Origin: a virus
DNA: 64,000 nt
Virus record (IMG/VR): IMGVR_UViG_3300032893_000763
Location: 29,769 to 93,768 of that record
Direction: 5' to 3' (one strand)
The translations under genes were made by a program, and so were the position numbers. Every line of letters begins with the position of its first letter. The first letter of the stretch is position 1. A model generated the notes under the pieces. It saw only the letters and a program-made list of their open reading frames with translations. It had not been told where the DNA came from and made no database searches. This document shows, in pieces, positions 1,219-49,279 of the stretch.

Positions 1219-1784
1219 ACGACGAGACGACACACGCAGTCTTCGCCACCACGCACCAACACGAGCGAGTCCGCGTGTCGGACGCCCTCGGCTGGCGCGA
1301 GGCACAGCGAGAGTGGCAGCGGCTCGACCTGCTTCGGCTCGCCGGGCTCATGCCGCACGTCAAGCACCTGGAGGTTCGCTCGACGGACGATCCCGGCTAC
1401 ATCTCGGCCCGGCTCTCGTTCCTGCACCGCAGGCCCGTGCTCAAGGGCTCGCGCGGCTACGCCGACTCCAAGGGGTCGGGGTGGGGCAACGAGTACACCG
1501 GCAAGGAGAAGGCGGCTCGCAAGGCGTGGAGCCTGTTCGCGCCGACGTTCCGCGCATCGTGGGACAAGGATCGGGACAAGTTCCGCCGGTCGCAGGGCAA
1601 GGCCCCGCTCATGGAGCGCACGGGCGTGCAGGGCTCGGGCGGCTGGTACTACTGGCCGAACGGCACCACGGCAGCACAGGGCCTCTCCTCGCTCGCCACG
1701 CTGTGCGAGCGGCGCGGGCTCATCGTCCAGGGCCTCAACGACAAGTGGTTCGCTCTCGACTTGAGCGAGCCGGAAGGAGTCTGA
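1215..1784 (+). CDS. Hypothetical protein
   Basis: GTGA overlap, SD GAAGGAG, high GC3. Confidence 0.7.
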   Translation: MNDETTHAVFATTHQHERVRVSDALGWREAQREWQRLDLLRLAGLMPHVKHLEVRSTDDPGYISARLSFLHRRPVLKGSRGYADSKGSGWGNEYTGKEKAARKAWSLFAPTFRASWDKDRDKFRRSQGKAPLMERTGVQGSGGWYYWPNGTTAAQGLSSLATLCERRGLIVQGLNDKWFALDLSEPEGV

Positions 1785-1785
1785 C

Positions 1786-2004
1786 ATGAAGCGCAGCCGG
1801 TTCCAAGCGTTGTTCAACGACTGCCCCGGTGCAGTGCTCGGCTCCGGGCCGGAGATGTCCAACCCTGGCCGCATCATCGTGGAGTCCGAGGACTCCGTGC
1901 GGGCCATCGAGTACATGCGCACCAAGACCAAGATGCTCCGCATCGAGCCGCACACGCGGTGGTGCGAGGGCATCGTCATCGTCTTCGACTGGAAGGAGAA
2001 CTGA
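1786..2004 (+). CDS. Hypothetical protein
   Basis: SD GAAGGAG, tightly packed operon. Confidence 0.65.
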   Translation: MKRSRFQALFNDCPGAVLGSGPEMSNPGRIIVESEDSVRAIEYMRTKTKMLRIEPHTRWCEGIVIVFDWKEN

Positions 2005-7001: not shown

Positions 7002-7105
7002 CGCCGGGAGGGAGCCGCTCCACTCGGTCGCCCGCGTGGGGCGGCCTCCTGGATGCGCGAGGCAATCGCGGAGACGACAGTGATGTGGGTGTTCTGTGAA
7101 GTGGT

Positions 7106-7160
7106 CATGTTCACAGTATCGGCCATATTCACAGGTGTTGTGAATCACCCGAAAGAGTGA
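7106..7160 (-). promoter_or_regulatory. Repeated promoter element, copy 3
   Basis: TCACTC-TTTC-GGGTGA, 23 bp, CGATACT, 6 bp, ATG7108. Confidence 0.85.
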
Positions 7161-7163
7161 AGA

Positions 7164-7241
7164 TGCGGCGGCGCGGAGCGGGCCTCGAACCCGCAACCTC
7201 CGATGCCTCGGGCTCTACCTCTTGAGCTACCCGCCCGCCGC
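7164..7241 (-). ncRNA. tRNA-like RNA with truncated anticodon arm
   Basis: TA-GCTC-AAGAGGTA-GAGC D arm; CCGA-GGCA-TCGG mini arm; AGGTT variable loop; GCGGG-TTCGAGG-CCCGC T arm; extended acceptor stem. Confidence 0.7.
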
Positions 7242-7291
7242 GTGCCGGTTGCACCCCGGCGGCGTCAGCCGGGAAGGAACCGGAAACCCTA

Positions 7292-7617
7292 TGGAGCCGG
7301 TGGGAATCGAACCCACGTCCGAACAGGTGGTGCGCTGGAAGTTGATAGCAGCTTCTTGGGGGCATGTGCCCTCCACCAGGGCAGCCGTCTCTCCGGCTCC
7401 GTAGTCCGCTCGTCTCTCCGAGCCGTCCTTCGCGTGGTGCCCTACGCGAACGAGGGAGCGAAGGCCGGGGACGCAGGCACGAGGCCCTTGATCCACGACT
7501 TCGCCGCGACGATCAGCTTGGTGATCGCACTTGACGTTGCCCTCCGGGCCGGTGCGGTAGGCCGCAACCCGCTGCCTTCTCACGTCCGTTCCTATCCGTC
7601 GAAGCCAGGTCGGCCCC
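7292..7617 (-). ncRNA. ssrA: tmRNA
   Basis: 5' GGGGCCGACCTGGCTTCGACGG; 3' GGACGTGGGTTCGATTCCCACCGGCTCCA; acceptor stem with G3:U alanine identity pair; internal tag ORF 7528-7442; TACACT -10 at 7630-7625. Confidence 0.93.
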
Positions 7618-7649
7618 GCGAGAGAGTGTAGCACCCTCACGGGAGCCCC

Positions 7650-8417
7650 CGGCTCGATCTCAAGCGCATCTCCCTCTGTGCTGTGGTAGGTGCGGGCGTC
7701 GTGTGCGGCAGACTTGAAGCGAGTGGACTAGAGAGTCCGATGCTCCGTCGTCTCTACCACTCTACGGTTTTAGTCGAGGGCTCGCCGTACGCCCCCTTCC
7801 TCCCGCGTTACTCCGCCACACCGTCTAGGCGATGCGCCATTCCGCGCCTACCATCGAGGTCTAAAGCGATGCACCAAGCGGGAGCGCAGCACCACGGCTC
7901 GCGTGCGCCGCGACTAGTGACACGTCGAAGGGAACTCTGCAAGCCCTGAGTGGCTCGCTTCCAATCGGTGTGCGACCTCGTACGTCCGTGCTGGCCGGGC
8001 TCCCGCTTGATTCCTACGAGACTTCCTCAAGTGTCCGCCACGCCGTCCTCTCTCGCCTACCCTACCCGTTCGTGCGCACTCCCGGTTACTCTCGGCTTGA
8101 GACTCTGACGCTTTACTGTTTCACTCGCCCGTACGCCTCATCCTCGTACACCCTTCGTTCAGGGGTCGCCCTCGGTCTTCGCTGCTAGCCGGGGTCGTGG
8201 TCGTTAGCCGTCAGGGGTGTAGTCAACGGTGTGCTGGACGGTACCTCGCAGTGGCGGGCACTGGAGGAAGTCTCGTGAGTCTTCATCCGCGCGACCGTAG
8301 TCTGCTCCTTCGCGGTGGAGACAAGTGATAGAGGGGAGTTCCGCCTTCCGGCCAGTTTCCCGTATCCGCTTGCAAGCACATCATCGGGCCGAAGCCCCAA
8401 GCCTGCAATCCCTCGTA
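7650..8417 (-). ncRNA. Candidate large structured non-coding RNA (~750 nt)
   Basis: No credible ORF; 26-bp long-range helix 8016-8041/8251-8276; 11-bp helix 7875-7885/7999-8009; end-closing helix 8398-8406/7708-7716; UUCG and GNRA tetraloops on the minus strand; TAGGAT -10 at 8429-8424. Confidence 0.7.
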
Positions 8418-8449
8418 CGAGTGATCCTACTGGATTCGGGAAGGTTCCG

Positions 8450-9013
8450 TCAAGAGAGCGGGCAGACGTTGCCGACCTGCACGGGCTTGTAGTCCGTGAT
8501 CTCCACGCAGACGTTGATGTACGTCTTGCCGGGGATGAGATGGCCGTCGTGCTCGGTCGGGTCGTTCGAGGGCCGCATGATGTTCTGATGCGTGTGGCCG
8601 TGGATGTTCGTGTGCCACCACTCGACGCCGATGCCGGTCGAGCCGCGAGACGGGCCGGGGAACTCGACGGAGATCGGCCGGTGCGTGAAGGCCACGCCCT
8701 TGCGGATGAACTCGGGGATGATGGTGAAGCCCGCCTTGGCGTAGAGGTCGCTCTCGGGCTTGTCATGGTTGCCGAGGATCAGGTACTTGCGGCCGGGCAG
8801 GCGCGAGACGACGGCAGCCCACCGCTCGGGGTTGCCCTGCTTGCCCATGAACACGTCTCCGAGATGGAGGATGTCGTCCTCCTCGCCCACGTACTTGATC
8901 CAGTTCGAGAGCATGATGACCTCGTGGCTCTCGGGCCGCGCCTGGAACTTGATGATGTTCTTGTGGCCGAAGTGCGTGTCCGAGATGAGCCACGTGCGGT
9001 TGGCGATCTTCAC
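8450..9013 (-). CDS. Calcineurin-like metallophosphoesterase
   Basis: SDTHFGH, HLGD, LGNHD, FTH, HGHTH motifs. Confidence 0.92.
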   Translation of the reverse strand: MKIANRTWLISDTHFGHKNIIKFQARPESHEVIMLSNWIKYVGEEDDILHLGDVFMGKQGNPERWAAVVSRLPGRKYLILGNHDKPESDLYAKAGFTIIPEFIRKGVAFTHRPISVEFPGPSRGSTGIGVEWWHTNIHGHTHQNIMRPSNDPTEHDGHLIPGKTYINVCVEITDYKPVQVGNVCPLS

Positions 9014-46027: not shown

Positions 46028-46258
46028 CTACGAAGACATCAACTTCTCAAGCTGCTCATCGGCCTTGGCTGCGGCCAACTGGCGCTCGCGCATGGCGGGC
46101 GTCCCGTGGCTCGCAGCGGCCTCGCGCTTCTCGGCGTACAGGCTCTCGATCAGCGCGGTGAGGCGCTTGCAGTCATCGCCGTTGACGCCCGACGACCACA
46201 GCGCCCGTCGCTCGGCCGAGAGCCGCTCGATCTCCTCGGAGATGTCTCCTCTAGCCAA
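46028..46258 (-). CDS. Small helical protein
   Basis: Overlaps the FtsH stop; 76 aa. Confidence 0.55.
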   Translation of the reverse strand: MARGDISEEIERLSAERRALWSSGVNGDDCKRLTALIESLYAEKREAAASHGTPAMRERQLAAAKADEQLEKLMSS

Positions 46259-48392
46259 CGATGCTCCAGTCGATGCGCTCGGGAGCCTGGAGGCCCGCCG
46301 AGTCCATCAGCCGTGTGAGGTCATCGCCGTAGACCTCCTTCTCGCGGAGGAGCGTGGCGACGATCTTCTCGATGCCGAGGCGGTTCTCCTGCACGGCGTT
46401 GCGTGCGACCGTGTAGGCGATGCCGAGGAGCGTGCACTCGGCCTTCGTCTTGTACGGCGCGAGCTTGATGTCATACGGCCCGGCGGCGGCGACGAGGCGC
46501 TGCCCGATCTTCTCCATCGCCTTGTGGTCACAGCCGGGGTACTCGGGAACGTCCATACCCCACCGGCCGACCATCGCTCCGGCGAGGTAGGACGCCTGCC
46601 CGAGATCCCCTCCGACACCCTGCGTGTTGTTGCCGTAGAACTCGACCTCGGCGGCGTAGGCCCCGAGGATTGTGACGAGACGATCCATCAACTCGTCGCG
46701 GTAGAGGGCGAACCGCTCGACGTTCTCGACGGACATCAGGTGCCCGCCGGTAGCACCGCGCTTCTTGATGGAGAGCCGGACGGCCTCCGTGTGCTCCTGG
46801 TAGAGGTACTCGCACACGGCGTGCCCGGCCTCGTGGATCGCGGTGCTGCGCTCCTCCTCCTCGGACTCGTAGCCCCACCCGAGCGCGGTGCCCGCCTCGA
46901 CGGTGACCATCGCTTCGAGCAGGTCGGCGCGGGAGAACGCCTCGCGCCCGGAGTGGTGGGCGTACGTGAGCGCGATGGAGCACACCTGCTCAATCTGCGC
47001 CGGGGAGTAGTTGTCCGTGACGCGAGCAAGCTCCTCGCGGGCCTCGGTCGTATCGAGGTCGGCGTCGTGCGTCACCTTGCCGAGGTAGAGGTCGAAGATG
47101 TCGAGGCGGTCGCGCTTGGTCGGCGTGCGGAAGTAGATGTGGCGACCCATCCGCCCCGGCCGCGTCATCGCGGGGTCGAGCGCCTCCAGCGGCACGTTCG
47201 TCGCGCCGACGAAGAAAATCTGATTGCCGGTCGGCTTGGCCTTCGGCAACCGCAGCGAGATGTAGCGGGGTGAGAGGTCGGTCGGGTACTTGTCCGATGT
47301 GCGCCATCCCACGCGGATCTTCTGCGGGACGATGTAGAGAGCATCGAGCCACAGGTTGACCTTCGAGACGAGGGTCTTGCGGAGGAACGGCGGGTTGTCG
47401 ATGCCGTCCATGACCACGAGCAGCGATTGGAGGCCCATCTGCCCCATGCCGCCGAACATCCCGCCACCGCCGGGAATCTGCGGGTCGAGCGTCTTCGAGG
47501 AGCCGCCTGCGCCTCCCTGGAGCGCAGCGCGGCGCATCCCTACGGCGTCGATCTCGTCAATGAAGATGATGCACTGCCCGCCCCACTTCCGCGCGAGCTT
47601 CTTCGCCTTCCGCGCCATGTAGCGGACGATGATGACATCCATGCCGATGAACGTCTGCGCGAAGCCCGAGCCCGGCATGAGCACGATGGGGGAGTTGAAC
47701 CCGGTGGCGATGGCCTTGGCGAGCATCGTCTTGCCGGTGCCGGGAGGGCCGAGGAACAGGATGCCGCGCTCGCGCTTGCCTCCCGCCTTGGTGAACTTCG
47801 CGCCGGACTGCCAGAGGGTGACCACCTTGCGGATCTCCTCCTTGGCCTCGGCCTGGCCGCGCACGTCGTCAAGCTCGACACCGAAGTCCGCGTCTCCAGG
47901 CTCCAAGCCCGACATCTGTGAAATCCCCATCATCATCATCGGGCCGAAGAACAGGAGGAAGTTGGCGAGGAAGAAGATCGGGAGGATGATGAGTTGCTGG
48001 ATCATCTGCCCGTTCAGCTTCGACGCGATGGCGTCCCACGTGTAGCCCCACGTCCCGAGCCACGAGCCGCCGTGAATGAGCCACACGACGGTGATGAGCA
48101 GCGAGAGGATGCCGAGCAGCCGGAACTTGCCCCTCCAGAAGTGCAGCCGCCGACGGCGGAGAGCGTCCTCGGCCATGTCGTCCTTCGCGGCGTCGAGAGT
48201 GAGCGGCACCTGCTCGACAAGGTGCTTGAGCGCGAGATCGACCGCGCCCCGGAAGGCCCCGACGAACAGGACGGCGAAGATGACCGAGACGACGAGCGAG
48301 TGCCCGTGGTTCATGAACCACACGACGATGATGGGAGACGTGAGTGCTGCGACCGCAGTCGCGGCCCACGCCAACCGCTTGAGCGGATTCAC
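46251..48392 (-). CDS. ftsH: FtsH-like membrane AAA+ zinc metalloprotease
   Basis: Several N-terminal TMs; DVRGQAEAK, Walker A GPPGTGKT, Walker B IIFIDEID, SRH TRPGR, HEAGH, G.GGDL. Confidence 0.92.
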   Translation of the reverse strand: MNPLKRLAWAATAVAALTSPIIVVWFMNHGHSLVVSVIFAVLFVGAFRGAVDLALKHLVEQVPLTLDAAKDDMAEDALRRRRLHFWRGKFRLLGILSLLITVVWLIHGGSWLGTWGYTWDAIASKLNGQMIQQLIILPIFFLANFLLFFGPMMMMGISQMSGLEPGDADFGVELDDVRGQAEAKEEIRKVVTLWQSGAKFTKAGGKRERGILFLGPPGTGKTMLAKAIATGFNSPIVLMPGSGFAQTFIGMDVIIVRYMARKAKKLARKWGGQCIIFIDEIDAVGMRRAALQGGAGGSSKTLDPQIPGGGGMFGGMGQMGLQSLLVVMDGIDNPPFLRKTLVSKVNLWLDALYIVPQKIRVGWRTSDKYPTDLSPRYISLRLPKAKPTGNQIFFVGATNVPLEALDPAMTRPGRMGRHIYFRTPTKRDRLDIFDLYLGKVTHDADLDTTEAREELARVTDNYSPAQIEQVCSIALTYAHHSGREAFSRADLLEAMVTVEAGTALGWGYESEEEERSTAIHEAGHAVCEYLYQEHTEAVRLSIKKRGATGGHLMSVENVERFALYRDELMDRLVTILGAYAAEVEFYGNNTQGVGGDLGQASYLAGAMVGRWGMDVPEYPGCDHKAMEKIGQRLVAAAGPYDIKLAPYKTKAECTLLGIAYTVARNAVQENRLGIEKIVATLLREKEVYGDDLTRLMDSAGLQAPERIDWSIVG

Positions 48393-48766
48393 GAGCAGTA
48401 TCTCGTGGAGATGCGCTGGCCGACCGTGACCTTCGGCGTCGTGGCCTTGGCCGCGAGGTCGAAGCGCACGAAGGCGCACGTCGCGGGAGAGCCCGTCGCT
48501 GTGCGGATGTCGAGGATGCACCCGAAGCTCGTGCCGGTGCTTGCGGCCCGGCTGGCGTGCCCGTTGACGAAGGCAGCGCACCGGGTGCGCGAGACGACAT
48601 CTCCGCGCGACTGGAGCCCCTTGTCGAAGTACGAGACGACGATGTTCGACGCCTGGCGCACGGTGTACGGCTTGGGCTTGGTCGGCTTCGAGAACGCCGT
48701 GAGCGCGAAGAACGCAACGGCGAGGACGAGCGCGACGAGAATCGTGTAACCGACGAGCTTCTTCAT
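48389..48766 (-). CDS. Secreted/anchored Cys-containing protein
   Basis: N-terminal signal/TM, four Cys; GTGA coupling to ftsH. Confidence 0.7.
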   Translation of the reverse strand: MKKLVGYTILVALVLAVAFFALTAFSKPTKPKPYTVRQASNIVVSYFDKGLQSRGDVVSRTRCAAFVNGHASRAASTGTSFGCILDIRTATGSPATCAFVRFDLAAKATTPKVTVGQRISTRYCS

Positions 48767-48769
48767 GAC

Positions 48770-49279
48770 CTACCTCCCCTTCCTCGGAAGTTTGATGGAC
48801 GGTAGCACATACGCGACGTACTTGCCCTGCGGGCCTCTGCGGCCGTGGTGCCCCGCCGACTTGCTCCGCCGGATACCGACCTGCATCCCGTGCCCTGTGG
48901 CCTGCTTCGCTACCTGGCAAGCCTCGTGGAGCGAGCGCGAGTACGGCTCGCGGTAGGCGCGGGGCTCTCCGACCTCGGGGCGGTAAGCGATCAGGCCGTG
49001 GCTCACGGTGAGAGGGATCTCCCACACGTAGATGGTGCCCTCGACCTGCGCCGCGATGTCGGGCTCGATGATCTCGCACGCGACGAACTGCGCTGTGTCC
49101 GGGATCGGCTGGCCGACGGGCCACCCCTCGCCCGAGCCGAGCGCACCCCACACGAGGAAGTTGAGCGAGAGCACGATGGCGATGGCCGCGAGCTTGACCC
49201 ACCACGCGAGCCGCGCTGAGACGAGCAGGACGAGCAGGAGCACGTCCGTGATCGTGATGGCGATGAAGAACGGCGTCAC
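48770..49279 (-). CDS. Membrane protein (2 TM plus extracytoplasmic domain)
   Basis: GWP..IYVW..EPRAYREPYSRSLHE. Confidence 0.75.
   Translation of the reverse strand: MTPFFIAITITDVLLLVLLVSARLAWWVKLAAIAIVLSLNFLVWGALGSGEGWPVGQPIPDTAQFVACEIIEPDIAAQVEGTIYVWEIPLTVSHGLIAYRPEVGEPRAYREPYSRSLHEACQVAKQATGHGMQVGIRRSKSAGHHGRRGPQGKYVAYVLPSIKLPRKGR

Follow-up and report, generated by a model that had tools for sequence, protein, structure and literature searches.

The gene at positions 7292-7617, minus strand, of the window (the whole 64,000-nucleotide stretch of viral DNA that was analyzed) is a real phage tmRNA gene under structural selection, because its G3:U pair is invariant and its acceptor stem, helix 2 and T stem covary. 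What is new is the composition of its tag, not the length: the tag belongs to a conserved, basic class ending in PSFA within an actinophage tmRNA family. This tag most likely acts as a signal and not as a mere by-product of ribosome rescue, because its peptide features are kept in diverged homologues.

The tmRNA gene and its phage

ARAGORN identified a one-piece tmRNA of 326 nt at 7292-7617(-), with the CCA not encoded, and so returned exactly the gene and the 28-residue tag of the original prediction. The Rfam check proposed there was run as well. The alignment to RF00023 spans the model from 1 to 374, end to end, with 46.7 bits (E = 3.9e-17 in the region search; E = 7.9e-19 when the whole 93.8-kb virus record was searched). 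This is 0.3 bits below the gathering score of 47, and therefore a default gathering scan misses the gene at 7292-7617(-). The shortfall probably reflects the pseudoknots, none of which was demonstrable, and not an absent core. Four relatives from the family described below reach 50-58 bits. The parts of the gene are as follows.

7292..7617, minus strand: one-piece tmRNA gene (ARAGORN; RF00023, 46.7 bits; covariation in 11 members)
7625..7630, minus strand: -10-like hexamer TACACT, 7 nt ahead of the first tmRNA base (read from the sequence)
7611..7617, minus strand: 5' strand of the acceptor stem, GGGGCCG, with the G3 of G3:U (sequence, Rfam, covariation)
7539..7569, minus strand: two hairpins at the position of pseudoknot 1 (covariation)
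7529..7533, minus strand: upstream pentanucleotide CAAGU, with A at -4 from the resume codon (sequence, homologues)
7442..7528, minus strand: tag frame, with putative GCG resume codon at 7526-7528, 28 codons, and TAG stop at 7442-7444 (ARAGORN, homologues)
7429..7450, minus strand: helix 5, stem UUCGCG/CGCGAA, with the stop codon in the loop (MFE fold)
7408..7427, minus strand: hairpin GACGG-CUCG-GAGAGA-CGAG-C, where pseudoknot 2 would be (fold, family conservation)
7383..7398, minus strand: second hairpin, AGCCG-GAGAGA-CGGCU (MFE fold, covariation)
7292..7316, minus strand: T arm GUGGG-UUCGAUU-CCCAC, 3' strand of the acceptor stem CGGCUCC, and discriminator A (Rfam alignment)

The IMG/VR record (93.8 kb, rated complete) carries this one tmRNA only. 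Genes for a portal protein, a virion protein, DNA polymerase A and an SNF2 helicase confirmed that this phage, which comes from soil, is tailed. Its host is likely to be actinobacterial, because the closest cultured phages, judged by the polymerase (approximately 35% identity), infect Arthrobacter, Microbacterium and Micrococcus. No ORF with coding-type GC3 overlaps the tmRNA gene. Among 50,697 records of cultured phages, there was no nucleotide match to window positions 7100-7800 and no tblastn match to the window tag at E values up to 10.

The TACACT hexamer may set the transcription start at the mature 5' end of the tmRNA. A -10 element at the matching distance was seen in the related loci L119 (TAGAGT), L114 (TAGAAT) and L090 (a full TTGACA-17-TATAGT). 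A sigma-70-like promoter match, TTGACG-18-TAGGAT at 8424-8453(-), heads the gene-free RNA stretch upstream of the tmRNA. Furthermore, a tRNA-like element lies 55 nt downstream, at 7170-7236(-). It scores 28.4 bits with the Rfam tRNA model (cut-off 29), its anticodon arm is reduced to approximately 10 nt, and it was not called by ARAGORN. This element is not conserved downstream of the homologous tmRNAs.

One scaffold carries two classes of tags

IMG/VR and metagenomes were scanned for patterns, and a nucleotide profile (nhmmer) and ARAGORN were then applied. This revealed a family of tmRNAs from uncultured high-GC phages, 11 full-length members of which make up the structure alignment. The family tags have 26-32 residues. 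Sister tmRNAs (L018/L142, L050, L127, L030, L100 and L088) have acidic AN(D/E)N...LVAA tags of 27-32 residues. Four tags read AIT(K/N)...(A/S)PSFA-stop, in which the AIT start is followed by a basic amphipathic stretch, a linker rich in Pro and the PSFA-stop end: AITKLIVAAKSWIKGLVPASPAFAPSFA in the window, AISNFIAKAKAWFRGFAAPAFAPSFA in L119, AITKVFAKAKTALRNLVPARVGFSPSFA in L120, and AITNVLAKVRDWFGNLLLPRPSLSPSFA in L114. The window tag had been described as unusually long, which it is not: 28 residues are normal beside its sisters and the 25 residues of the Bxz1 tag. The other features singled out in the original prediction, namely the lack of acidic residues, the basic amphipathic stretch and the PSFA end, recur in the three independent homologues, apart from one Asp in L114, the only acidic residue in the class. 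The net charge is +3 in the window tag and +2 to +5 across the AIT-type tags.

Excluding the tag, scaffold identity is 65-86% between the tag classes and 58-82% within the AIT class. The tag segments of the two classes are only 38-41% identical. In a scaffold tree the tag classes were not separated, and the AIT-type copies formed no clean clade. Judged by these comparisons, the tag behaves as a discrete module on a common scaffold. A fifth AIT-type copy is implied by P0004, a called ORF of a JGI record (84-kb contig) with the same off-frame words at the same spacing; it was the sole relative found in a protein search with a spurious ORF that overlies the tmRNA gene. A search of IMG/VR with the helix 5 word gave no further AIT-type copies.

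The coding segments of the AIT-type tags share 66-75% of their bases and 49% of their residues, and they differ by an in-frame indel of 6 nt (two codons). First-position changes leave positions 2, 5, 6, 9, 13, 16, 23 and 27 hydrophobic, Lys and Arg are swapped at positions 10 and 14, and silent changes are found in Leu (CTC/TTG), Ser (TCG/TCA) and the third positions of Ala and Pro codons. The following statistics rest on four intact sequences and are of modest significance, and high GC makes long open frames cheap. The helical hydrophobic moment of residues 1-17 is 0.45 in the window tag versus 0.22 in shuffles (p = 0.02), and for the first 17 residues of all four tags it is 0.45-0.55 versus 0.22-0.26 (p = 0.02-0.05). 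Compared with random mutation, the substitutions were more conservative in each of the six pairs, and p was below 0.05 for four of them.

A possible, though not likely, explanation is that only rescue matters: the tag would have no reader, and its apparent conservation would be due to common descent and to the RNA structure of the tag region. In E. coli, a phage plaque assay needs ribosome release but not the correct tag frame (PMC2481249). Furthermore, the conservation of the S-F-A-stop end could come from RNA structure alone, because this end overlaps the stem of helix 5, whose 5' strand is the last two tag codons (Phe-Ala), and because helix 5 is conserved in sequence in all AIT-type members, with the bases past the stop equally conserved. 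The substitution tests, modestly significant and with two of the six pairs not significant, leave room for this explanation as well. It accounts poorly, however, for the 5' two-thirds of the tag, where at least 30% of the bases vary and yet the hydrophobic spacing, the basic residues and the frame are kept across the 6-nt indel. The significant hydrophobic moment in four of four tags also speaks against it, as does the fact that frame 0 is the best conserved frame of the AIT-type tags (mean BLOSUM score 2.46 versus 1.86 and 1.42).

The RNA fold is supported by covariation

The G3:U pair is the AlaRS identity element. It had been noted in the tRNA-like ends, and it is present in the acceptor stem GGGGCCG/CGGCUCC and invariant in 11 of 11 family members, with compensatory changes at stem positions 4, 6 and 7. 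The T arm and the tRNA-like core were aligned by Rfam with posterior probabilities near 1, and the T stem covaries. The acceptor stem has 7 bp, and the T arm is standard, with a loop of the type GGUUCGAnUCC. The window tmRNA also contains a GGCUUCGACGG box (D-loop analogue of the type GGnUUCGAC).

In the alignment of the 11 full-length members, 91.8% of the cells pair in the RNAalifold structure, versus 31-48% in slid controls. Compensatory changes were found in 30 of 60 pairs (10-14 in slid controls), and none of 500 shuffles reached the observed values on any measure. In the long helix 2 (helices 2-4 of the alignment), which connects the tRNA-like domain with the messenger part, 12 of 18 pairs are changed on both sides and 87-100% of the cells pair.

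None of the pseudoknots 1-4 was demonstrable by fold and covariation analysis of the window tmRNA and its family. In E. coli tmRNA, pseudoknots can be replaced with activity kept (PMC2481249). At the place of pseudoknot 1, the two hairpins at 7539-7569 are GG.UGCGG-CCUA-CCGCA.CC, which has a covarying pair (U:A/C:G/G:C), and GCCC-GGA-GGGC, in which GCCC/GGGC changes to GUCC/GGAC and GCCUC/GAGGC with pairing kept. Three hairpins come after helix 5. In the second GAGAGA hairpin (helix 11 of the alignment), all four pairs show compensatory changes.

The 20-mer GACGGCTCGGAGAGACGAGC, which forms the GAGAGA hairpin at 7408-7427(-) (stem GCUCG/CGAGC), has a distribution of its own. It was found as an exact match in 56 IMG/VR contigs of very different GC (the window and the loci L022-L076 carry it), and only 3 of these copies are inside a tmRNA. 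Elsewhere it is located in spacers adjoining tRNAs or 7-45 nt ahead of the start codons of unrelated genes, including those for a methyltransferase, RusA, a Gp2.5-like SSB and a small terminase. Ahead of it there is often GAACGCC...GGCGU, which has a covarying helix, and a T-run follows the hairpin in AT-rich phages. No Rfam family matches it. The GAGAGA hairpin may be a widespread, undescribed phage RNA module.

The fold also bears on the idea that the RNA is a decoy, which would soak up host SmpB or compete with the host tmRNA and so blunt host trans-translation, with no tagging. We consider this very improbable. The 93.8-kb phage genome encodes no SmpB, as a decoy would have it, and the mycobacteriophage DS6A has a molecule with little beyond the tRNA-like domain, of a kind that inhibits tmRNA, perhaps by SmpB titration (PMC4131195). 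A decoy would not need the full messenger part, and yet the A at -4, the conserved open frame and the stop in the helix 5 loop are kept, and the long helix 2 covaries.

The resume codon and the reading frame

The tag AITKLIVAAKSWIKGLVPASPAFAPSFA, followed by a stop, is encoded at gene positions 90-176, corresponding to window positions 7528-7442 (ARAGORN). Comparison supports the GCG at 7526-7528 as the putative resume codon, which had been proposed together with its frame in the original prediction. In the sister tmRNAs, the site TCAA(A/G)T followed directly by GCG opens the tags that start with ANEN or ANDN and end with LVAA. An A at -4 from the resume codon is present in every family member and also precedes the GCC of host tmRNAs (Mycobacterium UAAGC, Arthrobacter UAAGU, Streptomyces UAAUC). 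The frame of E. coli tmRNA is determined mainly by this A (A86; PMC2481249). L119, L120 and L114 have the same frame, start and stop context at the homologous site (ARAGORN).

If translation resumed at a different site, such as an Ala codon further along the frame, or in another frame, a short ordinary tag would result. Several in-frame GCN codons are indeed located inside the tag, and the choice made by ARAGORN is heuristic; it apparently misreads L090, where the tag in another frame ends with LPLAA. Still, we find a wrong frame or start barely plausible. Frame +1 is erratic, with a stop after 4 codons in the window but only after 42 in L119. Frame +2 stays open up to the 3' end, and no frame gives an LAA-type end. 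The A at -4, its spacing and the AIT start are conserved and aligned with sister and host tmRNAs.

In L090 itself (1504-1823, minus strand), the ARAGORN tag ETTKHTCFLSRLNGHERRPGR looks wrong, and another frame reads NDEAYVLPLAA-stop. This is a short tag of the ordinary kind, and the codon where translation would be expected to resume is not one for Ala.

A scrambled origin of the window tag by two frameshifts was suspected, since the +2 frame DHQADRRGEVVD resembles the sister sequences ANDHMDR and ANDNDRIEVAD. This was rejected: the underlying GATCGT word is found in the window only and not in the other AIT-type copies, and AIT(N/K) and AND(N) are aligned in frame, with three base changes between them.

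A probable phage lineage of tmRNA

A conserved 21-mer of the family matched 31 stretches or contigs in 185,579 species genomes, and the nucleotide profile of the family barely touches host tmRNAs. Because none of the 31 bacterial matches is a tmRNA of the family, it appears to be a tmRNA lineage of phages that is unlikely to have been captured recently from a host. Synteny via the neighboring phosphoesterase gene gave one distant locus only, which has no tmRNA. We give almost no credence to a decaying relic, captured from a host or another phage and now disused: the Rfam score just below the cut-off, the reduced pseudoknots and a truncated, frameshifted relative in two metagenomes would suit it, but all helices covary with G3:U invariant, four diverged copies have an intact tag frame, the -10 element is correctly spaced in several members, and the 21-mer matches argue against recent host capture.

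This truncated relative is an AIT-type tmRNA remnant, identical in the two metagenomes (L123:360-546(-) and L125:269-455(+)). It retains the hairpins, the resume site and helix 5 and lacks the acceptor 5' strand and the entire 3' half. Its tag is frameshifted, with ATTKVVAKVKS... followed by ...FSPSFA-stop in another frame.

Proposed fate of the tagged proteins

The reading that we prefer, and consider fairly probable, is that the window gene is a working tmRNA whose tag would move rescued products off the host ClpX(LAA) route onto another. We infer expression, charging, use of host SmpB and the fate of the tagged proteins as follows. The transcript would begin at the mature 5' end, driven by the gene's own TACACT promoter. 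Host enzymes would trim the tmRNA and add the CCA, host AlaRS would charge it through G3:U, and host SmpB together with EF-Tu would bring it to stalled ribosomes. The phage itself has none of these factors. Processing, CCA addition, alanylation and delivery by SmpB are steps of the established trans-translation pathway. Translation would restart at the GCG at 7526-7528, four bases past the conserved A, and terminate at the TAG in the helix 5 loop, so that Ala plus 28 residues would be added to each rescued chain, giving the C-terminal end ...GLVPASPAFAPSFA. The predicted extension consists of a basic amphipathic stretch (residues 2-17), the Pro-rich linker and a non-polar (A/S)-P-S-F-A end. 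The most plausible route would be an FtsH-type AAA+ protease near the membrane, encoded by either the host or the phage.

The phage genome harbors at 46251-49205(-) an intact-looking gene for an FtsH-like protease with Peptidase_M41 and AAA domains. The motifs GPPGTGKT (Walker A), IIFIDE (Walker B) and HEAGH are present in the protein, whose ATPase is preceded by several membrane-like segments. Of the AAA+ proteases searched for, no other was found in the phage genome; ClpP, Lon and a CCA-adding enzyme were not found there. FtsH can degrade ssrA-tagged proteins, and the LpxC degron that it reads is a non-polar C-terminal tail, LAFKAPSAVLA (PMC8138137). An alternative degradation or targeting signal is favored because the phage has FtsH but neither ClpP nor Lon, and because of the LpxC tail and the precedent of the Mollicutes (see below). 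By analogy, FtsH may tentatively be named as the leading candidate reader of the tag. The link between FtsH and the tag is not specific. FtsH is also present in the 146-kb relative that carries L090, for which reading by eye gives a short tag with an LAA end, and the AIT-type contigs are too short to show FtsH. Four other family records, only one of which is complete, show no FtsH.

A more speculative reading, which we regard as rather unlikely, is that AIT...PSFA is a private phage address: the amphipathic stretch would direct the product to the membrane and the tail to FtsH, bypassing host ClpXP. Phages may then swap tag cassettes to choose the protease, because one tmRNA scaffold carries either an AIT...PSFA or an LVAA tag.

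The family constitutes a natural experiment, in which one scaffold bears two sharply different, conserved tag classes: one resembles an ordinary Clp degron with a long acidic middle, and the other is basic and amphipathic and ends with PSFA. If the PSFA class is read by another protease or sent to the membrane, phages would tune the fate of aborted proteins and not merely the supply of ribosomes, and actinobacteria would gain a new orthogonal degron. Without a reader of the tag, the family would show how freely a tag drifts once only rescue matters.

Comparison with known systems

Phage tmRNAs are established and have been listed for twenty years. The list of 2014 comprises eight mycobacteriophages and Bacillus phage G (PMC4131195), and a survey of 2021 found tmRNA in 402 of 18,146 phage genomes (PMC9004378).

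The tmRNAs of actinobacterial hosts have in common with the window tmRNA the tRNA-like domain, helix 2, a (U/C)AAGU-type upstream sequence with A at -4 and a GCN resume codon. In contrast, they have approximately 367 nt, score 143-181 bits with RF00023, and encode acidic tags of 12 residues ending with LAA (ANTKRDSFALAA, AESKRTDFELAA and ADSNQRDYALAA). The window tag likewise departs from the canonical ClpX ssrA degron, which has approximately 10-15 residues and an LAA or similar Ala-Ala end, since it has 28 residues and ends with P-S-F-A. Its sister tmRNAs share with it the scaffold, the resume site, the hairpins and a similar tag length, but their tags are acidic, with an ordinary ssrA-like start and end.

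Among the phages listed with ssrA by Hudson, Lau and Williams in 2014 (PMC4131195) are Mycobacterium phage Bxz1 (AY129337) and other members of cluster C1. Similarly to the window tmRNA, that of Bxz1 is a one-piece tmRNA in an actinobacterial phage, lies amid RNA genes and has a long tag (25 residues according to ARAGORN, ATDTDATVTDAEIEAFFAEEAAALV). It differs in its length of 435 nt and its Rfam score of 73.9 bits, and the nucleotide profile of the window family does not pick it up. Furthermore, the Bxz1 tag is strongly acidic and ends with ALV, whereas the window tag is basic, has no acidic residues and ends with PSFA. An E-(I/L)-E-A-F word of the Bxz1 tag recurs in the sister tags L018 and L088, and it is thus common to long acidic tags of distant actinophage tmRNAs (L018, L088 and L003, the Bxz1 locus), in the contexts LAELEAFANS, IVEIEAFLSE and DAEIEAFFAE. 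This word may be a common contact for an adaptor or a protease.

The Mollicutes (Mesoplasma florum, Mycoplasma) resemble the window in their long tags with a Phe-Ala end that departs from LAA. Their tags end with NYAFA and are read by Lon and not by ClpXP, which represents a protease switch (PMC9382460, PMC8138137). These are cellular tags of unrelated sequence, and the window tag, which has no NYAFA motif, does not qualify as a Lon-type Mollicutes degron; the resemblance is functional only. Moreover, the switch in Mollicutes is tied to the loss of ClpXP by the cell, whereas the phage of the window carries FtsH and not Lon. By analogy, the Mollicutes nevertheless offer the clearest precedent for a long tag with a Phe-Ala end acting as a re-aimed degron.
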